Made by a program: the position numbers and the translations under genes. Positions 4,515-47,649 of a stretch of 53,654 nt of DNA are shown piece after piece. The notes under the pieces were generated by a model. It was not told the origin of the DNA. It did no database searches and saw only the letters and a list, made by a program, of their open reading frames with translations. The stretch is from Patescibacteria group bacterium (GTDB lineage: Bacteria; Patescibacteriota; Minisyncoccia; Moranbacterales; UBA9337). Each line of letters begins with the position of its first letter. Positions within the stretch are counted from its first letter, which is position 1. The stretch spans positions 1 through 53,654 of the forward strand of contig JBHPHA010000005.1 in assembly GCA_042569905.1 (NCBI GenBank), read 5' to 3'.

Positions 4515-4973
4515 TTATCTTTTTGCCCACTGTGGAGCACGTCTCGCCTTCTTCAATCCTGGCTTCTTTCTCTCAACTTCTCTAGCGTCACGAGTCATGA
4601 AACCATTTGATTTAAGAATAGGTTTTAAATTTTCATCAAATTTAACCAGAGCTCTAGCAATTCCAAGTCTAGATGCCTCAACCTGTCCAGTTATTCCTCC
4701 ACCTTTAACTAAAACAGAAACCTTAAACTTACCATGCATTCCAGTCTCTCTTAGCGGTGCTAAAAAATTACTCTGCATAGCAGCAAGTGGAAAATATTCC
4801 CTTAACTTTTTTCCATTAACAATCAAGTCACTATCTCCAGCTTTTTCTGTTTCATAAATTCTAACCTGAGCAGTAGAGCTTTTTCTTCTACCTACAGCAT
4901 AAAAATATTTCTCATCAGCCTTCTTTCCTGATTTAACTTTTTTCTCTTCAATTTTAACTTCTTCTTTTTTCAT
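4515..4973 (-). CDS. rpsI: 30S ribosomal protein S9
   Basis: GRRKSSTA, GGGITGQ and RDAREVERKKPGLKKARRAPQWAKR motifs. Start reassigned to ATG at 4973 to remove the overlap with rplM. Confidence 0.97.
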   Translation of the reverse strand: MKKEEVKIEEKKVKSGKKADEKYFYAVGRRKSSTAQVRIYETEKAGDSDLIVNGKKLREYFPLAAMQSNFLAPLRETGMHGKFKVSVLVKGGGITGQVEASRLGIARALVKFDENLKPILKSNGFMTRDAREVERKKPGLKKARRAPQWAKR

Positions 4974-5010
4974 AAAAAGTATCTCTTTATTAAAACTTCG
5001 TTTATTTAAC

Positions 5011-5394
5011 TTATTTAGTGACATCTATCTTGTGATCGTGTTCACTATTTTTATAAACTAAAAGACGAGTCATCATTCTGTCTCTTAACTTATTTTTTGG
5101 AAGCATTCCTCTTACAGCTGAAACAATTATTTTTCGAGAATCCTTCTCTAATTGCTCCTCAAAAGTTGTTCCCTTAATTCCTCCTGGATAACCACTAAAC
5201 CTATAATAAGTTTTTTGCTTAGCCTTGTTACCAGTCAATACAACTCCATCTGCATTAGTAACCACAACGAAGTCTCCTCCGTCAATATTTGGAGTATAAT
5301 CAACCTTTCTTTTTCCGCTCAAAGTCTGGGCTATCTCTGTCGCCATTCTTCCTAGAACTTTTCCCTGAGCATCAAATAAATAATATTTTCGCAT
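5011..5394 (-). CDS. rplM: 50S ribosomal protein L13
   Basis: DAQGKVLGRMA, YTPNIDGGDFVVV, SGYPGG, VRGMLPKN motifs. Confidence 0.97.
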   Translation of the reverse strand: MRKYYLFDAQGKVLGRMATEIAQTLSGKRKVDYTPNIDGGDFVVVTNADGVVLTGNKAKQKTYYRFSGYPGGIKGTTFEEQLEKDSRKIIVSAVRGMLPKNKLRDRMMTRLLVYKNSEHDHKIDVTK

Positions 5395-9530: not shown

Positions 9531-9609
9531 CTTCTACATTACCATTATTCTTTATTTTTTGCAAGTCCTCACCTTATTTAAGTTACCTACATTTTTATAG
9601 CTAAATCAA

Positions 9610-9797
9610 TGTCATTCTGGAAAACATATTTTTCAAATCGAGGAACGAGATTTAGAAAAATAGTTTATCCGGAATCCATCCTTCATTAGTTGCAGTGAAT
9701 AACAAATAGGATAAAGTTATATTAAGATCGGATTCCGGATAAGTTAATTTCTTTGAACTCGTACCTCGCTCAAGAAATCATACTTTTCAGGATGACA
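9610..9797. repeat. REPIN-like element, copy 1 (two inverted TGTCAT-tagged hairpin units and a 54-nt spacer)
   Basis: TGTCATTCTGGAAAACATATTTTTC..CGAGGAACGAG..TATCCGGAATC [54 nt] GATTCCGGATAAG..TCGTACCTC..GGATGACA; arms closely match 47462-47649. Confidence 0.85.
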
Positions 9798-9862
9798 AAA
9801 TAGTAATGATCGCAAAACAAAAAAAGACTCTGCTTTTACACAAAGTCCTTTTTATTGTCTTG

Positions 9863-9934
9863 TAGCCCGTAGGAGAATCGAACTCCTGTTACCAGGATGA
9901 AAACCTGGCGTCCTAACCACTAGACGAACGGGCC
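9863..9934 (-). tRNA. tRNA-Glu (TTC)
   Basis: GGCCCGTTCGTCTAGTGGTTAGGACGCCAGGTTTTCATCCTGGTAACAGGAGTTCGATTCTCCTACGGGCTA: cloverleaf with anticodon TTC; CCA not encoded. Confidence 0.97.
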
Positions 9935-21865: not shown

Positions 21866-22012
21866 CACAACACCTCTCTTTTTAATTATTTTCAAGAAAC
21901 CTTCGCCCTATTTGGACACCAAATACTAACACGGTATGAATCGAGGTGTCAACTAAAAAAGCATAGATTTATTATCAATCTATGCTTTTGATTTTACTTT
22001 TTCACCCAGAAA

Positions 22013-22549
22013 CTATTTTCCTTCACCGTCTCCACTGAAGATGCTTTTAATCCCATGCCCAATACCCTTCACATATTCACCAGTCTTTTTAGCACCCCAT
22101 TTAGCTGCACCGACAGTGGCATCACCAATCATTCTGCTCCTATTAAGCTCGGTCTTCGTGACCGATAAATCATCCTCGGTGTCGAATTAACCATCCTTAC
22201 CAGAAGAAAGAGCTGTGTAAGCTATGTACATTCCATCAGGATCATCCTCGCGAATGACTTGAATCATGCCTCCCCATGCATCAATCTCCTGCGAATATCC
22301 AGTCGGCGCTTCGCTTTTTCTCGCCTCTATTGCAACTTCGGTAAGAATTTCTGTAGTCTCAACTGTTTTATGAGTGACTAAATAATGAATCCCGAAACCT
22401 GTAGCTATGAGCGCCAAGATGCCTCCAATCACCCATAAGAAAGCACTTTCGTTTGAGCCATCACCTCTTCGATTACCGCCTCCAACAGCTCCAATAAGTC
22501 CACAAAAAAGTTCCCCAAAAAGTTCCCCAATAAACTCAAACATAGTCAA
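22013..22549 (-). pseudogene. membrane protein with a GspG/pseudopilin-like DxWG..SxGxDG..TxDD motif, interrupted by an in-frame TAA
   Basis: The frame continues past TAA at 22187-22189: SSGKDG*FDTEDDLSVTKTELNRSRMIGDATVGAAKWGAKKTGEYVKGIGHGIKSIFSGDGEGK, ending at TAG 22013. Confidence 0.7.
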
Positions 22550-22734
22550 TCCCCCTTATTGTTTTTGTTAACCATCAGCGACTAGCAAGTCCCGTGTCTT
22601 AATTTAAAATAACTACCCCTAATCAACATAAAATATTACTACAGACTGAACAAAAAGTCAATACGTAATACTAATTTTAACAAAAAAATAAGGTGAAAAA
22701 TCATTATAATCTTTCACCCTTAAGTTAACTCGTC

Positions 22735-23010
22735 TTATATTAGATTTGAAGAGAAAATAGCTACAACCCCGATTTCAGAGTCAAAATCCAACAACTCCTC
22801 ACTTTCCATATCTCGACTTTCACCATAACAGATAACCCGAAATTTTCCTCCACATTTCTGACAAATAAAGCTCTTGCAGTCACCAACCCTCATCACATGA
22901 ACAACTTTCGAAACATCGCGATCAACACCACACAACCTATTTCCAGCAAGATATCCTTTGGTTGATATTTGACCACCACAAACAATACTATTATTGACTA
23001 CTTTACTCAT
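22735..23010 (-). CDS. small Cys-rich hypothetical protein
   Basis: Overlaps the stop of the upstream ORF (ATGA coupling); CQKC motif; terminator at ~22685-22720. Confidence 0.6.
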   Translation of the reverse strand: MSKVVNNSIVCGGQISTKGYLAGNRLCGVDRDVSKVVHVMRVGDCKSFICQKCGGKFRVICYGESRDMESEELLDFDSEIGVVAIFSSNLI

Positions 23011-23231
23011 AATAATCTTCCCCGAGCATTCTTTTGATTCATCAGCCTCTCGTGATCCATCAAATCCTTAATATTGATAAATATTTTTATCGTATTACCA
23101 CATCCAGAACAAATCAAATCAATACGCTCAACTCGTAAATCAATTTTAGACAAATCATTCACTAATCTACAATTAGCGCACCCCACTAACTTATATTGAC
23201 CAAGAGTAAGATCAAATCCATTTTTCTTCAT
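23007..23231 (-). CDS. small zinc-ribbon-like hypothetical protein
   Basis: AAGGAG SD; CANC..CSGC. Confidence 0.65.
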   Translation of the reverse strand: MKKNGFDLTLGQYKLVGCANCRLVNDLSKIDLRVERIDLICSGCGNTIKIFINIKDLMDHERLMNQKNARGRLL

Positions 23232-23254
23232 TTCTTCTCCTTTTTTAAAGTACT

Positions 23255-23340
23255 AAAAAAACTGACCCACCAAGGCCAGCTTATTTTTATCAAGAAAATT
23301 TTTCTAAATCTTACTTCTGAACAAAAACAAATTGACCTCT
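23255..23340 (-). promoter_or_regulatory. attenuator (antiterminator/terminator) after a Phe-rich leader peptide
   Basis: Terminator AAGCTGGCCT-TGGT-GGGTCAGTTTTTTT; the segment AGGTCAATT in the leader can pair with the terminator 5' arm. Confidence 0.7.
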
Positions 23341-23400
23341 GAGGCGAGCCCAAAAGAAGAAAAAGAAAAAATATGAAATTTTACTAATTTGTCTTTGCAT
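23311..23400 (-). CDS. aromatic-amino-acid (Phe-rich) leader peptide, 29 aa
   Basis: MQRQISKISYFFFFFFWARLRGQFVFVQK, directly after a TTGCAT-16-TATAAT promoter (23421-23448). Confidence 0.7.
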   Translation of the reverse strand: MQRQISKISYFFFFFFWARLRGQFVFVQK

Positions 23401-23513
23401 AAGTTTATATTAATAACTTTATTATATTCCTTTAATAAAATAATGCAAATCAACAGATAAATCGCAAATTAAAAAGGAAGAAATTTCATTGAATTTCTTC
23501 CTTAAAATAGATA

Positions 23514-23699
23514 TCAGTAGAAATAGATAGAAGCACTTTTTTTCCTCTTCTTTAATGCCTCTATCACCTCATCTATACCAGCTTCGCGCTCAATATTTGA
23601 TAATCCCTTGAGCTCTTGAATTTTTTTAATAATGTCAGAAAACTCATCCTCAAATGAATTATTTTTATTCGCAACATGAGAAAATAATTGAGATGCCAT
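23514..23699 (-). CDS. small hypothetical protein
   Basis: Strong AAGGAGG SD; terminator hairpin at ~23470-23505. Confidence 0.55.
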   Translation of the reverse strand: MASQLFSHVANKNNSFEDEFSDIIKKIQELKGLSNIEREAGIDEVIEALKKRKKSASIYFY

Positions 23700-23717
23700 A
23701 ATAACCCTCCTTTTTTA

Positions 23718-23942
23718 TTACCAAGTACAAGGCCTTGTTTTTTTCAATGGACCATTGCAGCTATGCAGTACGCCTCTGACAAATTTTTGCCTCGTCATCT
23801 TTCCTACACGCTTCAACCCACACTCAACATTGTCACAGCTCCAGCAATACGTAACACTTTCCGACTTAAAATACTGACAACCAATAATCTTACTACACGC
23901 GGAACAAAAAATTCTCAAAGTTAAATTACTAATTTCACACAT
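23718..23942 (-). CDS. small Cys-rich hypothetical protein
   Basis: Start moved to ATG 23942 (AGGGG SD, after the T-box terminator); CSAC..CWSC plus further Cys residues. Confidence 0.6.
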   Translation of the reverse strand: MCEISNLTLRIFCSACSKIIGCQYFKSESVTYCWSCDNVECGLKRVGKMTRQKFVRGVLHSCNGPLKKTRPCTW

Positions 23943-23986
23943 AATTATTCCCCTATTTTCACTAGTTAAAGAACTATTTTTCCAAC

Positions 23987-24270
23987 AAAAAAAACTCCTC
24001 ATCCTTATGCGCATAATTCACATAAGAATTATGTGAAAGGACGAAGAGTCTTCGTGGTACCACCTTTTTTTATGAAAATAAAAATCACCCCGTGGGTGCC
24101 ATACTTCCATCTCATCAACTTTTACTCAATAACAAAAGAGTCAACATTGATTATCCCATGATTACGGAGGATGCCGAGATTCCACTAACGCAGAAGCCAC
24201 TTTTTTGATTATTTCATCAAAAGAATCAGACCCAGCCCTCTGAGAAATCAGAGGATCTAATTCATAAGTT
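23987..24270 (-). promoter_or_regulatory. T-box riboswitch-like leader
   Basis: Antiterminator AAAGG-TGGTACC-ACGAAG/CTTCGT-CCTTT with the 7-nt UGGNACC bulge; competing 13-bp terminator ACTCTTCGTCCTT/AAGGATGAGGAGT plus T-run; CCGTAA F-box-like motif; promoter TTGACA-16-TAAGAT at ~24293-24320. Stem I is atypical. Confidence 0.75.
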
Positions 24271-24412
24271 TTATTATTTTTAAAGTAATTTTATCTTAAC
24301 AAAGGTGCATATTTTGTCAAATTTAATCAAAAATATCAAAATTAAAAGCCCTCTTTGAATTCAGTGCACATTGGCACAAAAAACAAAAAGGGCTGTTCTT
24401 CTTATCTCCGTA

Positions 24413-25018
24413 CTACTTAAAGTACTGATCTCTTGTTAGCTTATAGTCAAACCCATCAGACAAAGCCTCTAAATTAGCATCATTAATATTATGCGAGACG
24501 CTTGCAGTTACCCATGAACACTCCTTATCCTTAAATTCAATAGCAACTCTAACCTTAGCATCAGATCCAATATTGCAGTTGGAAGCCATAGCCACATTAT
24601 AATCCACTAATTCAACTTCCTCGAGGCTCTTAAATATTCTGGACAATGCTTTTTTTATTACATTATTAGTTGCATCTACGGGACCATTTCCACTAGAAGC
24701 AGTGTGAACTTTTCCTGCTCCTGCGATGTTAACTTTGATAATTGCCTGCACCAATGAATCCCTATCCATACGATACTTATGATTGTCCAATTTGTATTCT
24801 ATGATTTCAAAAAATTTATGCCTAAAACCTTCCATTCCATACACAATAAGCTCCAACGTTGCAGGTGCATCTAAAATACAATAACCCTGATCATCTAATC
24901 CTTGGAGTCTTTCGACGATATCATCTAAATCCCCATCTCCAGTCTTTAACTTCCGACCTCTTTCCTCAAGAAGAGCAATGGCACATTTCTCGTAATCCTC
25001 TCTAGTAACTACACGCAT
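24413..25018 (-). CDS. stand-alone C-terminal linker and allosteric domain of the citramalate/isopropylmalate synthase family
   Basis: LQGLDDQGY..ATLEL, AIIKVNI..GNGPVDA, VELVDYNV, GSDAKVRVAIEF..SW..VSHNI..ALSDGFDYKL resemble the CimA C-terminus. No TIM barrel. AGAGG SD before ATG 25018. Confidence 0.8.
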   Translation of the reverse strand: MRVVTREDYEKCAIALLEERGRKLKTGDGDLDDIVERLQGLDDQGYCILDAPATLELIVYGMEGFRHKFFEIIEYKLDNHKYRMDRDSLVQAIIKVNIAGAGKVHTASSGNGPVDATNNVIKKALSRIFKSLEEVELVDYNVAMASNCNIGSDAKVRVAIEFKDKECSWVTASVSHNINDANLEALSDGFDYKLTRDQYFK

Positions 25019-25099
25019 AAACAAACCTCTTTTTCTGAAATTTATGTTTGATGAAAAAATCACATAGCTGCGTAATATTTCAGCTACATGAAGACTATC

Positions 25100-26704
25100 C
25101 TACAGAATACTTTCCAAAAGCCAGCTGTAGCAATTAGCAAACGCCTGAGCTGAAGCTTGGTTTGTGTCAGGATGAACAGAGCGACCTACATGAACTTGAT
25201 TTACTCCATTGGAAACACCAATTCGAGCATAAGCATCTGCAACTGCATCTGATCCTTTTCCCAAAGATACTGCGTGCCAATTATCCAGCTCTATTTCCAG
25301 CCCATTAATTTGTGGAAAATGTCGACCCACAATCGCATGAACTGCATTCATAATGGCATTATAAGGACCATTACCAATACCAGCTGCAATCTCAATTACA
25401 CCTCCTATCTCCATCTTGACCGTAGCAGTTGGAAGAGTTCCAGATCCGCCGATTGCCTGGCAATCGATAATCTTTAAATAATTAGGAATCCCAGAAACAG
25501 CATCCTGAACAACCGCCGCTAACTCCCTATCATTCAATGGGGACCCATTCTTAGAAGTAGATATATCCTTGAATTTTTCAAAGATCAGACCTATCTGATC
25601 ATCCTTGATATTAAAACCAAGTTTGACCAACCTATGCAGTAGTCCGTCTCTTCCAGATGATTGAGTAACTTCTACAGACAGTCCTTTGTGTCCATACACC
25701 TTCGGATCCCAACTATAGTAAGCACTACTCTTTCCCTGTTGCTTCGCACGAGCCTCAATTAATTGATGTGTACCAGAACTAACAATAGCGTTCTGAGCTC
25801 CAACAACAACCCAATGACGAGGCACTGACATTCCCAAAGCATTAGCAACATGATTAACAATAGTAACGCACATTTTTGAATCAAAATCTATTTCAACTCC
25901 AGAGAAAACATCTCTGCGAGAATTGATATTCATAATAATAGACTCAAAAGCGGTCATTCCACTTCGCTCACCTAGACCATAAAAAGTTCCCTCAATCTGG
26001 CTAACTCCAGCATTGATAGATTGAAGTGCATTTGCATTAGCGCAACCACTATCATTATGACAATGGACTGAGACCACCACACTCTTCAACTCCTCAATAT
26101 TATCAAACAAAAATGCAATCAGCTCACCAAACTCGCTTAAAACTCTGAGCCCCGTAGTGTCCGCAATATTAACCCTTGTTACACCAGCATCAATGACTGC
26201 TTTGATAATTTGAACCAAAAAAATTCTCTCAGTTCGAGCTGAATCTTCTGGAGTATATTGAATATGCTCAAATCCTATTGACTTCGCATATTCCACCATC
26301 TCAATAGCTCGTTCAATAACCCATTTTCTTTTTCCCTCAGGAGAATCTCCGTATTTTTCAGAATCAAATTGAGTAAGTAAAAATTCATCACTAGCTGGAA
26401 TATAAATATGAACCATATCACACCCAGCAGTTTTTACCGCATCAATATCCGCTTTAGTGGCCCTAGCCAATCCTGATAATATCGGCTTTTTATTCCCATT
26501 CCACGATTCAACAAATTGAACAATTCTTCTGCATTGCTTCATCTGCTCCTCAGAGCTACCTGGAAAACCTATCTCAATAGCATCTATTCCACCTTTCAAT
26601 AAAAGTCGCACATATTCAGATTGATCTCTTGGAGACATTGCCCCATTACTCACCTGAGCCGACTCTCTTAAGCAAACATCATTCAACAAAACCTTTTTAC
26701 GCAT
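25100..26704 (-). CDS. leuA: 2-isopropylmalate synthase-like DRE-TIM metallolyase
   Basis: DVCLRESAQ, IEIGFP, EDSART, NIADTTG, SVHCHNDSG, GLGERSG, and a C-terminal regulatory domain (PTATVKM..GNGP). Confidence 0.8.
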   Translation of the reverse strand: MRKKVLLNDVCLRESAQVSNGAMSPRDQSEYVRLLLKGGIDAIEIGFPGSSEEQMKQCRRIVQFVESWNGNKKPILSGLARATKADIDAVKTAGCDMVHIYIPASDEFLLTQFDSEKYGDSPEGKRKWVIERAIEMVEYAKSIGFEHIQYTPEDSARTERIFLVQIIKAVIDAGVTRVNIADTTGLRVLSEFGELIAFLFDNIEELKSVVVSVHCHNDSGCANANALQSINAGVSQIEGTFYGLGERSGMTAFESIIMNINSRRDVFSGVEIDFDSKMCVTIVNHVANALGMSVPRHWVVVGAQNAIVSSGTHQLIEARAKQQGKSSAYYSWDPKVYGHKGLSVEVTQSSGRDGLLHRLVKLGFNIKDDQIGLIFEKFKDISTSKNGSPLNDRELAAVVQDAVSGIPNYLKIIDCQAIGGSGTLPTATVKMEIGGVIEIAAGIGNGPYNAIMNAVHAIVGRHFPQINGLEIELDNWHAVSLGKGSDAVADAYARIGVSNGVNQVHVGRSVHPDTNQASAQAFANCYSWLLESIL

Positions 26705-27556: not shown

Positions 27557-30500
27557 TTAATTTCCACCTGTGCTTTCAACAATCCACCAATCAAACTCGA
27601 TATTATCAGCAGTAATCTCAGTAACTCCAATATCGAATCCCTCTTCAATTTTCACATTATCTGAGAACAAGGTGAGACTAGTAGCACTCCTTGGTGTCAC
27701 AAATATCCTACTATCATCACTAATTGCCTTAGTTTCAATAAAAATAGTCTTTCCATCATTCACGATTCCCTCTTCTGTGTTGTCGTCAATCCAATTACCA
27801 TCCTCATCCACTGGCATTGACTCACTTGTCAGGTCATCATTTCCATCTTCATCCGCGTCTTTTGGAATTGCATTTCCAGAACAATCATCTAGGTCATCCT
27901 CATCCTCATCTACTGGAATCACTGAACAGATTGTTGCTCTACCGATTGTTGGAGCTTCATCATCATCTATTGTAATGACGAAACCTTTTCCTTCTACTAT
28001 CTCTGCTTTCAGGTTTCCTTCTAACGTTACATTCCCATCTCCATCTTTAGTGATGAAATTATCTGTGTTAATTGCTAGCATAAAGTCCAGAATTGCCTCA
28101 TCTTGAGTTTTAAGCTCTTCAATTTCTTGAATTTGTCCTTGGAGCTGTGTTTCTAGTGCCAGTTGATTACTTATTTGAGTTTGAATTAGGTTTAAATTTT
28201 CTGTGATTCTTGTTTCAATTTCAATGATTGTCATGTTTTGTGTAGCCAACTGATCACTCACTGTTAGTAAGTCAGTATTTTGCTGATCATCTGAAAGCTT
28301 GATGTCATTTATTGACAATCCCACTAATGCTAATTGTTCGTCAATTGAAGTCTGAAGCTCTGTCAAAGTTGAGGCGTTCTGGTCTGTTTTGAGACTAACA
28401 TCACCAATCACAGTTTTATTTTCGCCTGTCTTTTCTAATAACCCCTTAACTCCAAACAGAGCCACACCTGCCATATCTGTTGCCTTAACATTTGTATCTG
28501 ACGCTCCGAGTCCAAATAATTTATAGAAATCCTGAGCAGTTGGTCCAATATGTCTAATCTCTTCATCGCTCATCTTATTGTAGTCTCCCTCATTGATGAA
28601 ATTCCATTGCATAATTGGAAGAATTGACATTCTATTGAAAAACTCACTTGTATCCAAATTCACATCTGATCCGTCCGCATATTCAATCGCATCAATAGTA
28701 GAGCCATTTCCATTCCATGTTCCTAATCCCACAGGATTCACAGTAACATCGCTAAGTTTAGTAAAGTTTTCCTTCTTATTTCTATCAGACACATCTGTCC
28801 AACCAGAAGTTGTTCCATAAGTATCTGAATCCAATTCAATTAAGTGAGTTGGGGCTGTTGCAGCAGCACCAATACCAAAAGATCCATCCGCAATAAACCT
28901 TGCCCTTTCAGTGGATCCACTTCCTGTGTAAAAAGCAATTTCTCCTGAATCATTACTATTTAATATCTGAACATTACCGGTTGAAGCCCTATTACTAAAC
29001 TGAGCATTATTTAACGTAGTATATGAAACCAATGCTCTAGCTATACCAGTAGAGTCGTTAATTTTATAACCTTGAGCGTTATCTAAAAGCACACTTCCTG
29101 AGTCAATAACCAGTTTTTCATTTGGATTTGTTATTCCAATCCCAGCATATCCTCGTTCGCTAATAACAAAATCAACATTATCACTCGAATCCCTGACAAT
29201 GAATTGAGCTGGTAATTTATCTGGAGATGTATCATTTGCATTATCTGAAAACGCCGCACCTACTGTCAAACTTGTGTCACTTGCAATTGCCATCACCGTT
29301 CTTGTTTGCCCCGTTACTGTAATTCTATCTCCCACGATCAATTCATCTGTAAATATCGTCCCCACACCCGTTACTGTTGTGCTTGCAACAGGATCAATTG
29401 TTCCTGTCAAGACTGTAGTAGTCGCTGCAGTTGTTCTTGTTGTTCCTGCAACATCCAGCATTGTCTCTGGAGAAATCGTTCCAAGACCGATTCCATTATT
29501 CCTGATTCCTCCCGCTCCATCTGATTCAGCATAAACAGTTAGAATGCTACTTCCATCAATCATTGCGCTGTAACTTTCCACCGTACCAATAGATGCAGAT
29601 GATGTCACTGGCATATCTACCCATGAGACCGCTCCACTATTTGCAGCAAATTCCATTGCTCCAAGATATGCGCTTCCTGCTACCTCAAGATCCCCTGAAA
29701 CCATCACGCTGTCACTCGCTGCTGCAAGCGTTGATGATGTTGAACCAATGTGCAGCGCTACTTCTGGAGTTGCGTTTCCAATTCCTAGGTAATCACTCGT
29801 ATCATCCCAAAACAAATTAGAATTATCTTGAGAATAAACCCCACTAGCTCCAGCAAAAACTAACGAACCGGTTGTAAATTGTGTTGCTGTTCCGGTTCCT
29901 CCATTAGCTGCAGGAAGAGTTCCTGAGACATGAGTTGAAAGTCCAATCTTTCCCCAACTTGGTGAAACCCCTACTCCTCCAGAGATTAGTGAGTTTCCTG
30001 TAGCTACTCCTGCTAGTTTTGATAGGGTCGTTGTTCCTGATGCGTAAATCAAGTCTCCTACTGTGTAAGACGCTAGCCCTGTTCCTCCTGTTGCGACTCC
30101 TAGAGTTGCTGAAACAGACCATGTTCCACTTGAAATGGTTGGTACTCCAGTTGAACTTGATGTGTCAATTCCTGTTCCTCCATAGGTTGCTCCGATTGCA
30201 GTTCCATTCCAAGTTACGCCTGAGATTGTTGAGTCTAGATTAATTGTTGCTGTATCAGTAGCTGATACAGCTGAGGTTAAGTTAGTTCCACCTGCAATTG
30301 TTAACGTATTCCCATTTTGCACTGTCTCACTTCCTGAATCTCCTGCCAATGTAAAAGATCCTCCTGCTCCTTGTCCTGAATAGAAAGTAGTCTGACCTGA
30401 TCCATCCCCAATAACCAATCTATTATCATCACTATCCCACTCAATCACAGCCTCTGTAGTTGGTGTCGGAGTTGCTGAATTAACTAAAGTTATTGCTGAA

Positions 30501-32815
30501 GTTCCAATTGTACCACTAGCTATTGTTAGATTATTTGCGACCAGTGAATCAGGAAGTGTTGCTGAAACAGACCATGTTCCACTTGAAATGGTCGGAACCC
30601 CTGTTGATGAGCTTGTGTCTATTCCTGTTCCTCCATTAGCTGCAGGAAGAGTTCCTGAAACATGAGTTGTGAGTCCAATCTTTCCCCAGCCTGGAGCTAC
30701 TCCTACTCCTCCAGAGATTAGTGAGTTTCCTGTTGCTACTCCTGCAAGTTTTGATAGGGTCGTTGTTCCTGATGCGTAAATCAAGTCTCCTACTGTGTAA
30801 GACGCTAGCCCTGTTCCTCCTGTTGCGACTCCTAGAGTTGATGAAACAGACCATGTTCCACTTGAAATGGTTGGTACTCCAGTTGAACTTGATGTGTCAA
30901 TTCCCGTTCCTCCATAAGTTGCTCCGATTGCAGTTCCATTCCAAGTTACGCCTGAGATTGTTGAGTCTAGATTAATTGTTGCTGTATCAGTAGCTGATAC
31001 AGCTGAGGTTAAGTTAGTTCCACCTGCAATTGTTAACGTATTCCCATTTTGCACTGTCTCACTTCCTGAATCTCCTGCCAATGTAAAAGATCCTCCTGCT
31101 CCTTGTCCTGAATAGAAAGTAGTCTGACCTGATCCATCCCCAATAACCAATCTATTATCATCACTATCCCACTCAATCACAGCCTCTGTAGTTGGTGTCG
31201 GAGTTGCTGAATTAACTAAAGTTATTGCTGAAGTTCCAATTGTACCACTAGCTATTGTTAGATTATTTGCAACCAGTGAATCAGGAAGTGTTGCTGAAAC
31301 AGACCATGTTCCACTTGAAATGGTCGGAACCCCTGTTGATGAGCTTGTGTCTATTCCTGTTCCTCCATTAGCTGCAGGAAGAGTTCCTGAAACATGAGTT
31401 GTGAGTCCAATCTTTCCCCAGCTTGGAGCTACTCCTACTCCTCCAGAGATTAGTGAGTTTCCTGTTGCTACTCCTGCAAGTTTTGATAGGGTCGTTGTTC
31501 CTGATGCGTAAATCAAGTCTCCAGTTGTGTAACTAGCCAGTCCTGTTCCACCATAAGCAACTCCAATAATTGAACCATTCCAAGTCGTTCCTGAGATTGT
31601 TGAACCTAGATTAATTGTAATTGTGTCAGTTGCACTAGCTACTGTTGAGATGTTTGCTCCTCCTGCAATTTCCAGAGTGTTTCCATCTTCAATAGCTTGA
31701 TCTGTTCCAGAGTCTCCTGAAAGAGTGAAGTCGTTGAAAGTCCCTCCTGATGATACTGTTTCCCAAGATAGTGTTGGCACTCCTGCATTCCAATTGAATC
31801 TTAGATATTGCGCGTCATCTCCAGCCACACCATCTAGTGATGCCAGAGCGGTTGAGCTTGATGCATATGGAACTGAGCCTGGCACTAAAGTAAGTGCATT
31901 TAGATAACCTAATTCAGTCAGACTTGAACCTCCAAATGTTTGAGTTGAATTAAAAGTAATATTTCCAGTCATTGTTCCCCCTGTAGTGTCCAGATAGTTT
32001 CCTGTAGCGCTACCAATGTCACTGTAAGTTATTCCGTCGTTTGAGTACTGCCAAGTTGAACTTGCTCCGTTGTATCTCAAAGCTGGTTTTGCTGAACTGT
32101 TTGAAACAGTTAGATCAAAGTTATTTGAAACAGCTTTGTTTCTTCCTAGATTGAAAGTTAGAGATTTTGTTCCTGTGTCTGTGTTTTGATCATGCAGTCT
32201 GTCGTCGTCTCCTTGAACGTAGTCGCTATCTCCTGTTCCTGTTGGAATGAATTCTTCATCAATTTCTCCGTCTTCATTTAGAACAATGAGCTTATCTTCT
32301 TTTGATCCAATTGGCAAAAGGTCTGAGCTAATCTCTCCATCTTCATTCAGGATTGGAATATTATCTTCCCCTGTTCCCACAATATAACCTTGAAGTTTAT
32401 CTGAGTTTAGAGCCAAAGGAACATATCCAATTGGTTTTCTTGGTTTTGATTCTGAATCATTCTCAATTTTAATTCCTATGTAGTATTCTTTTTCTGAGAA
32501 ATCTATGTCTTCTGGAAGATTTTTATCTTGCCCTAATTGAGTATCAAAGAGCCCACCCTTAACTTCTACGTCTTGGGTTTCTGACCATTCACTGCTTCCT
32601 CCTGTTTTTGATGTGTATATTGCAAATCTTACTGAGTATGTTCCATCACTTACCGCTTCATTATTTTTATCGAGGATATATGCTGAAATATCTAGCGCTT
32701 TGTCTATTTGAGCTAGTGCTACTTGAGTAAGTAAAAACAGCCCACTCACCAAGAGTAGTATTATAGATAAAAGAAGGGTTTTTATCGATTTATTTTTGTT
32801 TCTATGATTGAACAT
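27557..32815 (-). CDS. large secreted/surface fibre-like protein with an intramolecular chaperone (peptidase S74-like) domain
   Basis: Signal peptide; G/S/T-rich GGTG repeats; GIG..P..L repeats; SDRNKKENF..IMQWNF..HIGPTAQDF chaperone motif; coiled coil; acidic C-terminus. Confidence 0.85.
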   Translation of the reverse strand: MFNHRNKNKSIKTLLLSIILLLVSGLFLLTQVALAQIDKALDISAYILDKNNEAVSDGTYSVRFAIYTSKTGGSSEWSETQDVEVKGGLFDTQLGQDKNLPEDIDFSEKEYYIGIKIENDSESKPRKPIGYVPLALNSDKLQGYIVGTGEDNIPILNEDGEISSDLLPIGSKEDKLIVLNEDGEIDEEFIPTGTGDSDYVQGDDDRLHDQNTDTGTKSLTFNLGRNKAVSNNFDLTVSNSSAKPALRYNGASSTWQYSNDGITYSDIGSATGNYLDTTGGTMTGNITFNSTQTFGGSSLTELGYLNALTLVPGSVPYASSSTALASLDGVAGDDAQYLRFNWNAGVPTLSWETVSSGGTFNDFTLSGDSGTDQAIEDGNTLEIAGGANISTVASATDTITINLGSTISGTTWNGSIIGVAYGGTGLASYTTGDLIYASGTTTLSKLAGVATGNSLISGGVGVAPSWGKIGLTTHVSGTLPAANGGTGIDTSSSTGVPTISSGTWSVSATLPDSLVANNLTIASGTIGTSAITLVNSATPTPTTEAVIEWDSDDNRLVIGDGSGQTTFYSGQGAGGSFTLAGDSGSETVQNGNTLTIAGGTNLTSAVSATDTATINLDSTISGVTWNGTAIGATYGGTGIDTSSSTGVPTISSGTWSVSSTLGVATGGTGLASYTVGDLIYASGTTTLSKLAGVATGNSLISGGVGVAPGWGKIGLTTHVSGTLPAANGGTGIDTSSSTGVPTISSGTWSVSATLPDSLVANNLTIASGTIGTSAITLVNSATPTPTTEAVIEWDSDDNRLVIGDGSGQTTFYSGQGAGGSFTLAGDSGSETVQNGNTLTIAGGTNLTSAVSATDTATINLDSTISGVTWNGTAIGATYGGTGIDTSSSTGVPTISSGTWSVSATLGVATGGTGLASYTVGDLIYASGTTTLSKLAGVATGNSLISGGVGVSPSWGKIGLSTHVSGTLPAANGGTGTATQFTTGSLVFAGASGVYSQDNSNLFWDDTSDYLGIGNATPEVALHIGSTSSTLAAASDSVMVSGDLEVAGSAYLGAMEFAANSGAVSWVDMPVTSSASIGTVESYSAMIDGSSILTVYAESDGAGGIRNNGIGLGTISPETMLDVAGTTRTTAATTTVLTGTIDPVASTTVTGVGTIFTDELIVGDRITVTGQTRTVMAIASDTSLTVGAAFSDNANDTSPDKLPAQFIVRDSSDNVDFVISERGYAGIGITNPNEKLVIDSGSVLLDNAQGYKINDSTGIARALVSYTTLNNAQFSNRASTGNVQILNSNDSGEIAFYTGSGSTERARFIADGSFGIGAAATAPTHLIELDSDTYGTTSGWTDVSDRNKKENFTKLSDVTVNPVGLGTWNGNGSTIDAIEYADGSDVNLDTSEFFNRMSILPIMQWNFINEGDYNKMSDEEIRHIGPTAQDFYKLFGLGASDTNVKATDMAGVALFGVKGLLEKTGENKTVIGDVSLKTDQNASTLTELQTSIDEQLALVGLSINDIKLSDDQQNTDLLTVSDQLATQNMTIIEIETRITENLNLIQTQISNQLALETQLQGQIQEIEELKTQDEAILDFMLAINTDNFITKDGDGNVTLEGNLKAEIVEGKGFVITIDDDEAPTIGRATICSVIPVDEDEDDLDDCSGNAIPKDADEDGNDDLTSESMPVDEDGNWIDDNTEEGIVNDGKTIFIETKAISDDSRIFVTPRSATSLTLFSDNVKIEEGFDIGVTEITADNIEFDWWIVESTGGN
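29895..31522. repeat. intragenic 732-bp tandem repeat (~2.2 copies)
   Basis: Identical blocks recur at 732-bp offsets (AAGTCTCC ends at 30058, 30790 and 31522), giving a 244-aa protein repeat. Confidence 0.95.
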
Positions 32816-47395: not shown

Positions 47396-47461
47396 ATGTA
47401 AATATTAAATCAAAAAGTAAAACTCAAAACCACAGCTTAAAATTTAAAACTCCCTCACTAC

Positions 47462-47649
47462 TGTCATTCCGGAAAGCATATTTTTCAAAACGAGGTACGA
47501 GTTTTAGAAAAATAGTTTATCCGGAATCTACGCTAACAAAAACCACAGGCTAAATATATTATCTCAGATTACATTCAGCGTAGATTCCGGATAAGTTAAT
47601 TTCTTTGAATTCGTACCTCCTTCAAGAAATTATACTTTCCAGAATGACA
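47462..47649. repeat. REPIN-like element, copy 2, 8 bp downstream of the GIY-YIG gene
   Basis: TGTCATTCCGGAAAGCATA..GAGGTACGAG..TATCCGGAATC [54 nt] GATTCCGGATAAG..AGAATGACA; 188 bp, same length as 9610-9797. Confidence 0.85.

Follow-up and report, generated by a model that had tools for sequence, protein, structure and literature searches.

Ribosome-mediated attenuation is textbook biology, and to our knowledge the classical trp, his, leu, thr and ilv attenuators cannot be aligned with each other. We analysed a stretch of 53,654 nucleotides (nt) from a Patescibacteria group bacterium of the order Moranbacterales (assembly GCA_042569905.1, contig JBHPHA010000005.1, positions 1 to 53,654; hereafter the window). 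On its minus strand, ahead of two genes for small Cys-rich proteins, lies a leader with a run of Phe codons (the Phe leader), which is quite probably a ribosome-mediated transcription attenuator sensing the supply of charged tRNA-Phe. The enterobacterial pheL-pheA and pheM-pheST leaders (compare PMC3082878) likewise combine a short open reading frame (ORF) carrying a Phe run, a terminator before the genes and helices chosen by the ribosome. The initial annotation of the window had described the locus as pheL/pheM-type architecture. This stands as a functional analogy but not as homology, since none of the Rfam 15 covariance models matched 23225-23460 at E up to 10, and no sequence or structure homology to pheL or pheM was detectable. 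In further contrast to pheL and pheM, the leader ORF is not preceded by a Shine-Dalgarno (SD) motif and many members of its family are leaderless, the outputs are orphan Cys-rich mini-proteins and not pheA or pheST, and its RNA scaffold also serves further amino acids.

The trp, his, leu, thr and ilv attenuators of proteobacteria and Actinobacteria (PMC1183508, PMC1262725) share with the Phe leader the logic of 1:2, 2:3 and 3:4 helices, the cognate codons and termination by default. They differ from the family to which the Phe leader belongs, found in Moranbacteria, in that the latter carries at least six amino-acid classes on one alignable scaffold, all found by a single covariance model. The leaderless polycysteine small ORFs of mycobacteria, which are Cys-responsive attenuators, are similar in that codon runs for a single amino acid control downstream operon genes (bioRxiv 10.1101/834739); the Moranbacteria family has an intrinsic terminator, conserved alternative helices and several amino acids, a comparison that leaves the mycobacterial mechanism aside. 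T-box leaders also place a small exchangeable specificity element on one scaffold, read tRNA charging and control a terminator, and both kinds of leader occur at this locus. A T-box binds the tRNA directly and has no ORF, whereas the Phe leader would read charging via the translating ribosome. The mechanism is classical; the novel aspects are the lineage, a re-programmable scaffold common to the family, leader ORFs that are leaderless, and uncharacterised outputs. No leader peptides or transcription attenuation in Patescibacteria or Moranbacteria were reported in the searched literature, outside which lay about 1.7 million PubMed Central articles and every subscription-only paper, and the papers listed for Parcubacteria with 'leader peptide' dealt, judged by titles, with pilins, a Microgenomates genome and secondary metabolites.

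A 29-codon ORF at 23400-23311, starting about 20 nt past a TTGCAT/TATAAT promoter and containing eight consecutive aromatic codons, had been noted in the initial annotation. Both features were confirmed in the sequence, the -10 hexamer ending 20 nt before the leader ATG (Table 1), and all three Cs of the Phe run were seen to occupy the wobble (third codon) position. Promoter-like sites in a 1.8-kb stretch numbered 9, compared to 6.4 ± 3.0 in shuffled sequences, and the promoter match alone is not above chance; terminator-like sites numbered 6, compared to 0.6 ± 0.8 in shuffles. Between the terminator of the upstream operon (23503-23474) and the 74-aa gene, the site at 23449-23421 is the sole promoter-like site on the minus strand. 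Since there is no other, the 74-aa and 91-aa genes would be reachable only by read-through of the leader terminator.

Table 1. Predicted features of the Phe leader and of the two-gene operon that follows it (window coordinates)
Feature	Position	Strand	Description
Sigma-70-like promoter	23421..23449	minus	TTTGCA-17-TATAAT, 10/12 matches; alternative parse TTGCAT-16-TATAAT, same site
Leader ORF	23311..23400	minus	ATG 23400, 29 codons + TAA (23313-23311), MQRQISKISYFFFFFFWARLRGQFVFVQK
Segment 1	23386..23398	minus	GCAAAGACAAAUU; ORF nt 3-15; partner 2c (23333-23321), anti-antiterminator
Regulatory codon run Y F6 W	23350..23373	minus	Codons 10-17: TAT TTT TTC TTT TTC TTC TTT TGG
Segment 2a	23343..23350	minus	GGCUCGCC; partner segment 4 (23271-23264); extends long hairpin to U tract
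Segments 2b and 2c	23339-23333 (2b), 23331-23320 (2c)	minus	2b GAGGUCA, 2c UUUGUUUUUGUU; antiterminator 5' arm, inside ORF
Antiterminator apical stem-loop	23293..23318	minus	Contains leader stop TAA (23313-23311)
Segments 3a and 3b	23291-23280 (3a), 23278-23272 (3b)	minus	3a GAUAAAAAUAAG, 3b UGGCCUU; antiterminator 3' arm
Terminator hairpin	23282-23259	minus	10 pairs, then U7 tract (23261-23255); -12.9 kcal/mol
Segment 4 and U7	23255..23271	minus	Terminator 3' arm 23268-23259; U7 23261-23255
Ribosome-binding site (RBS) and start codon of 74-aa gene	23229..23247	minus	GGAG at 23241-23238, 13 nt past U7; complementary to Phe-codon tract
First regulated gene, 74 aa	23007..23231	minus	CxxC-19-CxxC, orphan
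Second regulated gene, 91 aa	22735..23010	minus	Cys-rich with CxxC pairs, orphan; start overlaps 74-aa stop codon
Terminator closing the two-gene operon	22690..22720	minus	

Analysis of base pairing indicates that alternative sets of helices, each excluding the others, are available to the leader RNA, namely 1:2c, 2b2c:3a3b and 3b:4, to which this copy adds 2a:4. At minimum energy (-36.4 kcal/mol; z -2.25, a value that 3 of 200 shuffles match) the leader folds into a single long hairpin with interruptions, built from 2a:4, 2b:3b, 2c:3a and the apical stem, whose base lies two bases short of the U tract. Segment 3b doubles as the 5' arm of the terminator (23282-23273), and 2b and 4 compete for it. 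An antiterminator segment four codons past the run had been proposed earlier, and indeed GAGGUCA at 23339-23333 pairs with the terminator 5' arm at 23278-23272 in the minimum-energy fold. The two-part switch of the initial annotation was therefore right in the overlap of terminator and antiterminator, but incomplete, in that it missed the pairing of segment 1 (23398-23386) with segment 2. In the window the 1:2c helix has 13 pairs and a duplex energy of -12.6 kcal/mol, reached by 1 of 200 shuffles, and the 2a:4 duplex (-13.3 kcal/mol) is equalled in strength by none of 200. Addition of the RBS region of the 74-aa gene gave a fold in which the Phe tract pairs with the RBS (-56.6 kcal/mol; z -4.47, a value that 1 of 200 shuffles attained); the tract:RBS duplex alone, at -18.8 kcal/mol, is among the best 0.7% (about 4) of 584 RBS regions in the same genome. 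The window thus holds the features of a classical attenuator, namely a short 5' ORF, a codon run, an intrinsic terminator, an exclusive antiterminator and an upstream segment 1, although fold statistics of the window alone do not prove function.

We propose the following mechanism. In the absence of a ribosome, either the long hairpin at the U tract or 1:2c together with 3b:4 would form, and transcription would stop either way. When Phe-tRNA is plentiful, the ribosome would reach the TAA in the apical loop and cover 2b and 2c; 3b:4 would form, and transcription would again stop. When Phe-tRNA is scarce, the ribosome would stall on codons 11-17. A ribosome covers about 12-15 nt on each side of the decoding site, and the stalled or a trailing ribosome would cover segments 1 and 2a, leaving 2b and 2c free. 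The 2b2c:3a3b helix would then form during transcription, segment 4 would be left without a partner, and the polymerase would enter both genes. A stalled ribosome would also block pairing of the Phe tract with the RBS, which would represent a second, translational lock on the 74-aa gene.

Two further properties of the leader deserve mention. The invariant T-rich core might, speculatively, make the polymerase pause and so couple it to the ribosome. In the -1 frame relative to the leader ORF no stop interrupts the stretch (23353-23228, minus) that opens ahead of the Phe run and closes with a UGA sharing bases with the AUG of the 74-aa gene (ATGA), and the Phe run begins with U UUU UUC, which we take to be a slippery pattern. 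Slippage at the run could bring ribosomes to the 74-aa gene; this is a lesser speculation, and the arrangement may be a coincidence in a T-rich stretch.

We searched 301 genomes of the same order with the DNA of 23460-23225. The best match, on contig C12 of the genome G002, the nearest relative, showed 82% identity (E 9.9e-45), and weaker but clear matches were observed in many further genomes of the order, often two per contig. The leader ORF of G002 is MQRQIEKISYFFFFFFWARLRGQFVFVRK, with ATG, reading frame and Y-F6-W all kept; its Phe run differs from that of the window by one synonymous TTT to TTC change, with no change in amino acid. In the G002 terminator four pairs differ yet still pair, one of them being changed on both sides. 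These results bear on whether the ORF might have arisen by chance on a T-rich tract beside an ordinary terminator. Phe-type (TTY) triplet runs of at least 5 occur 11 times on both strands of the 1.12-Mb genome, 4 of them with at least 6 triplets, all three frames are open across the tract in the window, and neither the promoter match nor the leader-alone fold, with its z of only -2.25, is compelling by itself. Among these 11 runs only that of the leader falls in a short ATG-started ORF (contexts judged by eye), and since other genomes have retained the helices as well as the ORF and its run, a chance ORF is excluded for practical purposes.

The Phe leader is no lone oddity; it belongs to a large family. 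Alignment A2 comprised 33 copies, the window and 32 copies from 27 fetched loci. An ATG-started ORF of 26-33 codons was found in all 33, which, along with the retention of the start codon and Phe run in G002, provides the conservation on which the initial annotation had staked its reading. Whatever frame reads the 2c core UUUGUUUUUG, the distance from its first base to the stop codon is 13-27 nt, and every copy has a U tract preceded by a terminator hairpin with an energy of -9 to -20 kcal/mol. The core, UUUGUUUUUG and AUAAAAAUAAG, is nearly invariant. We observed paired bases in 93.4% of cells for the 23 pairs of the antiterminator 2b2c:3a3b, 12 of them with compensatory changes; none of 500 shuffles scored as high, and slid controls gave 42-54%. 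For the 9 pairs of the terminator 3b:4 the figure was 96.3%, with 6 compensatory pairs, and none of 500 shuffles was as high on four of five measures. When RNA upstream of 2b was removed, 21 of the 33 copies had the 2b:3b pairing in their minimum-energy folds, and the antiterminator was the more stable state in 20.

The 1:2c helix required a different treatment. On fixed alignment columns no more than 72% of its cells were paired, a level that 12 of 500 shuffles also reached, because the pairing register differs between subgroups: examined sequence by sequence, 31 of 33 copies have 8-17 pairs, and the position of the complementary stretch within the ORF varies by subgroup. This helix was therefore judged by per-sequence duplex energies in place of fixed columns, and the family sum was -389.6 kcal/mol compared to -217.8 ± 10.8 in shuffles, a value that none of 200 reached. 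The corresponding sum for 2a:4 was -273.7 compared to -221.3 ± 10.7.

We used alignment A2 and the antiterminator structure to build a covariance model, R1, and accepted matches at E up to 0.001. R1 found the leader in 86 of 151 genomes sampled from the order, in 47 of 76 genera and in up to 5 copies per genome. In a sample of the class, taken mostly outside the order, 6 of 151 genomes matched, with lower scores, the window's own genome being one of the six. The Phe leader itself scored 110.8 bits (E 1.2e-15); since the window is part of the seed this match holds by construction, and the independent evidence is the BLAST match in G002. A pattern scan of public records yielded at least 119 stretches, mostly chance matches of the AT-rich pattern in other phyla. 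Following the scan with nhmmer left at least 33 full-length matches in at least 24 loci, of which, by title, 19 are Candidatus Moraniibacteriota or Moranbacteria, 2 'Parcubacteria group' and 2 unclassified, while 1 bears the label Bdellovibrionales. These titles agree with the origin in the Candidate Phyla Radiation that the initial annotation had supposed.

A sigma-70-like promoter lies within 75 nt of the ATG in 28 of the 33 copies, and in 16 of these 28 the gap between the -10 hexamer and the ATG is 6-10 nt, a spacing that places the leader ORF on a leaderless or nearly leaderless mRNA. SD-like motifs precede the ORF in only 3 of 33. These data, along with the invariance of the core, allow an evaluation of a switch that works without translation, in which a protein, a tRNA or a ligand would bind the core, and the pyrimidine tract would serve as an anti-RBS, perhaps a heat-labile one. 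The nearly invariant core, the strength of the pairing between the CU tract and the RBS, the low z of the fold that includes the RBS and the lack of an SD motif before the ORF would all suit such a switch. It would not account for an ORF that is open in 33 of 33 copies with its stop fixed relative to the core, nor for the gap between -10 hexamer and ATG, which in 16 of 28 is that of a leaderless mRNA. Moreover, the variable part consists of single-class codon runs in the ATG frame whose class fits the downstream pathway, most members carry mixed Y/F/W codons and no pyrimidine tract, and no Rfam family matches. The core itself is under three overlapping constraints, pairing with segment 1, pairing with 3a and translation, which explains its invariance. 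We therefore regard a translation-independent switch as unlikely, and attenuation by a translating ribosome as the better explanation of the leader.

The peptide encoded by the leader could, alternatively, be functional in itself, for example as a small membrane or toxin-like protein with its own promoter and terminator, the next genes being mere neighbours. Conserved peptide motifs do exist, an N-terminal M-x-x-Q..K on segment 1 and a C-terminal RG[RQ]FVFA on segment 2, the residues between them are hydrophobic or aromatic, every copy comes with a promoter and a terminator of its own, and several copies occur in some genomes. In four of the 33 (L018, L027, L028 and L029), however, the nucleotides of segment 2 are still conserved but are read in another frame, to give ...ICFCG or ...VYFCG, with the codon run still in the ATG frame and the stop still just past the core. 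The ends of the peptide are thus conserved as RNA and its middle as codons. The N-terminal motif coincides with segment 1, and a complement to 2c is kept even where it lies at other positions in the ORF. The centre shifts between aromatic, Ile, Leu, Val, Met and Asn/Asp residues in step with the function of the downstream gene; the Asn/Asp and Met versions are polar, not hydrophobic, and a hydrophobic or aromatic stretch of just 8-13 residues is too short for the membrane span of a type I toxin. A plain terminator would also have no need of 2b and 4 as alternative partners for 3b. A functional peptide is, on balance, highly improbable.

If the leader is an attenuator, the class of its codon run should name the amino acid that is sensed. 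Among the 33 copies, 25 have aromatic runs (such as YYSFYFWF and WFFFFFF), 7 branched-chain runs (Ile/Leu/Val) and 1 an Asn/Asp run (NDNNDNDD). Further copies carry Leu-rich (SILLLSLLLGLL and LQILLGLELL), Val-rich (IVVVVVL), Ile-rich (INIITISIIMICDII) and Met-rich (MSMMHMM) runs. Codons of a single class are most numerous in the ATG frame in just 26 of the 33 copies, a test of frame that is weak because T-rich off-frames read as Leu. Pfam analysis of the genes downstream of aromatic runs identified prephenate dehydratase with an ACT domain at L007, L118 and L087 (a fragment at L087), prephenate dehydrogenase at L025, L087 and L118, in gene strings that also hold a class IV aminotransferase, and subunits of 2-oxoacid:ferredoxin oxidoreductase at L013, L021, L027, L028, L029, L052 and L121. 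In G002 an Ile-rich run (L017) precedes an HMGL/HCS_D2/LeuA_dimer protein and a Leu-rich run (L154) an HMGL/IPMS_D2/LeuA_dimer protein, and a Met-rich run on contig C50 (L155) precedes a protein with the C-terminal domain of an S-adenosylmethionine (SAM) hydroxide adenosyltransferase (27.8 bits, cut-off 25.5). The Asn/Asp-rich run of L018 lies ahead of an Mqo-like oxidoreductase and a class I/II aminotransferase. The predicted specificity of the run matches the downstream genes wherever Pfam names them, with Leu and Ile runs before isopropylmalate or citramalate synthases and the Met run before a SAM hydrolase. Among the Pfam-named loci we saw no case in which a leader of one class precedes a named gene of the pathway of another amino acid.

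Many of the first downstream genes encode small proteins without a Pfam family. One of these families, whose members have about 120 aa, is encoded behind aromatic leaders at nine loci and is predicted to form a four-helix or helical bundle (predicted local distance difference test, pLDDT, 85.4); its assignment as a chorismate mutase was dropped, the model having no match in the PDB at E up to 0.001. Leaders are often found in tandem or clustered (also at L100, L140 and L154). At L138 two near-identical leaders (3959-3811 and 3761-3612) stand 50 nt apart before one gene, and a single 13.5-kb contig of G002 carries four leaders that differ in class.

The genes behind the Phe leader were found to be orphans, in agreement with the initial annotation, which had seen in the 74-aa and 91-aa CxxC proteins no resemblance to the aromatic pathway or pheST. 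No Pfam family matched either above its cut-off, the sole hit being DUF5817 at 17.2 bits against a cut-off of 31. In a word-indexed protein collection of 5.8 billion clusters each protein matched only itself, and no homologue of the 74-aa protein was found in 60 related genomes; an exhaustive search of representatives returned the 74-aa protein itself and two weak partial matches to long proteins. The two are weakly similar to each other (E 0.025). Structural look-alikes of the 74-aa protein in the Atlas provided zinc-ribbon-like leads only, from an Atlas model with a pLDDT of 0.55, and the structure model of the 91-aa protein, with a pLDDT of 45.5, is not usable. The Phe leader of G002 is followed by a 198-aa Cys-rich protein that shares the Cys pattern of the window proteins. 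We considered this protein as a positional orthologue and rejected it, since BLASTP was not significant (E 1.3 and 1.6).

A second regulatory RNA was identified 600 nt upstream of the Phe leader. It is a T-box leader at 24274-24034 on the minus strand, the sole strong Rfam match in 22000-24500 (44.2 bits, below the Rfam cut-off of 93), with its own terminator, so that the whole element spans 24274-23985. It precedes a 74-aa CxxC ORF (ATG 23942) and a 61-aa ORF (23699-23514), and is 82% identical to a T-box of G002 that precedes a 74-aa ORF, IGPS, a PALP enzyme and tryptophan synthase alpha. The 3' bulge of stem I holds UGG in both the window and G002; Ile had been the first guess for its specificity and was replaced by Trp. 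A search for the T-box signature (stem I with specifier, and the T-box sequence) gave no match at the Phe leader, and gave five T-box-like sites elsewhere in the genome. One of these, on contig C17, overlaps the start of an rRNA gene by our reading of the context. Identical T-box-like sites (29.1 bits) lie at 1333-1461 and 3795-3923 of contig C29 of genome G000, ahead of two copies of one gene start (MSEEKKLDKQEILRH...), of 157 aa (truncated) and 548 aa, in a duplicated segment of this 9.5-kb contig.

The identity of the downstream genes raises the question of whether the switch is a relic in this genome, inherited from an ancestor in which it regulated Phe or Tyr genes, and now placed before meaningless or newly arisen ORFs. 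PDT, PDH and chorismate synthase were not found in the genome, the 74-aa and 91-aa proteins have no homologues, and the T-box, so similar to one preceding IGPS, TrpB and TrpA in G002, here precedes small orphans, with no TrpB or TrpA found by tblastn (genome 85% complete). Yet all parts of the switch are intact, its score is among the better ones of the family, and its differences from G002 are synonymous or compensatory. The Phe leader of G002 also precedes a Cys-rich unknown protein, and small CxxC ORFs, none of them named by Pfam, directly follow 3 of 5 leaders from other families of the class (L149, L151 and L153). Finally, the downstream genes have strong SD motifs, an overlapping stop and start and their own terminator. 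We consider a relic very unlikely, and an attenuator in current use the reading to be preferred.

Several observations nevertheless weigh against an attenuator that responds to Phe. The regulated genes in the window are orphans without a link to Phe, and PDT, PDH_N and chorismate synthase were not found in the genome, which is 85% complete. First proteins after aromatic leaders are not depleted in aromatic residues, with a fraction of 0.085 in 30 proteins compared to 0.094 ± 0.030 in 598 long ORFs. For the window, the start of the transcript, its termination and translation are all deduced from sequence. No SD motif was found before the leader ORF of the window, and its 5' untranslated region would be of about 13 nt, whereas real genes nearby carry strong SD motifs; since lack of an SD motif is the rule in the family, it is not in itself a sign against translation. 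In the alignment the ORF start was picked by rule, as the ATG nearest 68 nt before the core, with one set by hand. Copies of the family are relatives, and the shuffle counts, which overstate independence, are not probabilities. The 2a:4 helix is individually strong only in the window and a few other copies. The antiterminator and terminator states of the window are nearly equal in energy (-20.4 and -20.8 kcal/mol), which implies that read-through must rest on the order of events during transcription, with 2:3 favoured by the order of synthesis. In the trp attenuator, too, the order of synthesis decides, and not thermodynamics alone. Folding with and without a ribosome mask, as the initial annotation had suggested, showed the antiterminator in the unmasked fold, and the masked folds showed that thermodynamics does not by itself decide the outcome in the window. 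With a mask ending at RNA positions 72-81 the minimum-energy fold retained the terminator, masks that permitted pairing across the ribosome also led to the terminator fold, and when everything 5' of the ribosome edge was masked, an antiterminator-like fold appeared only for edges at RNA positions 66-69.

Beyond this locus we propose, tentatively and with somewhat more doubt than conviction, that one ancestral scaffold has been re-programmed many times in Moranbacteria by swapping of the codon run (aromatic, Ile, Leu, Val, Met, Asn/Asp), that its leaders are largely leaderless, that their commonest outputs are small proteins of unknown family, and that the Cys-rich mini-proteins are a new class of starvation effector in host-dependent bacteria of the Candidate Phyla Radiation (CPR). 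In this genome both the Phe leader and the T-box precede orphan Cys-rich mini-proteins. If the proposal is true, the scaffold would be the ribosome-read counterpart of the T-box specifier. Gene regulation in the CPR is almost unknown, and this scaffold is present in over half of the sampled genomes of the order. A codon run that can be read as a specificity would provide an annotation tool, naming the amino acid to which each unknown downstream gene answers, and would suggest that organisms with small genomes monitor tRNA charging for several amino acids. It would also point to partial pathways that are kept or regulated (pheA/tyrA, leuA/cimA, 2-oxoacid:ferredoxin oxidoreductases and SAM hydrolase), and would mark dozens of small proteins that belong to no known family as induced by starvation, including the two Cys-rich orphans and the four-helix protein of about 120 aa. 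The family may serve as a natural experiment on the evolution of attenuator specificity, and on attenuation with leaderless leader ORFs.

Other members of the family were detected in the window itself. A second copy lies at 27440-27292 on the minus strand (R1 40.8 bits, E 0.0025; nhmmer E 9e-5). Its promoter at 27504-27477 is a perfect TTGACA-16-TATAAT, and its terminator carries U7. Its ORF, MQVKDIFITDVIITLLAEAQRGWIACVKIN (27442-27350), is rich in Ile, Val, Thr and Leu, and it is found upstream of a 93-aa ORF (27229-26948) and an HMGL-like/LeuA_dimer gene (26704-25100). A candidate third copy, degenerate, occupies 26908-26784 (minus), just before the HMGL-like gene, with the Leu-rich ORF MCPLLHKLFPSAQASLNLVVRKFIFIRKVRVV. 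Core and hairpin are present, there is no clear U tract, and R1 matched it in part (26850-26784, 34.3 bits, E 0.03). The region 24413-26704 (minus) encodes the HMGL-like/LeuA_dimer protein of 534 aa and then a separate 216-aa LeuA_dimer-only protein, the latter 37% identical to the C-terminal part of a citramalate-synthase-like protein of G002. A weak match to the leader model at 4477-4344 (minus; 29.2 bits, E 0.27; nhmmer E 0.007), just past the stop of an ORF at 4515-5024, is probably only the terminator of that ORF.

Elsewhere in the window, repeats of about 70-85 nt occur in pairs and in both orientations at 9609-9798 and 47459-47649. They match two places on contig C12 of G002 with 75-84% identity, and one pair adjoins a tRNA-Glu gene (9862-9934). 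GC skew is strongly negative across the whole window and nearly all long ORFs lie on the minus strand. An ORF of 1752 aa at 27557-32815 showed only a weak match to Peptidase_S74.

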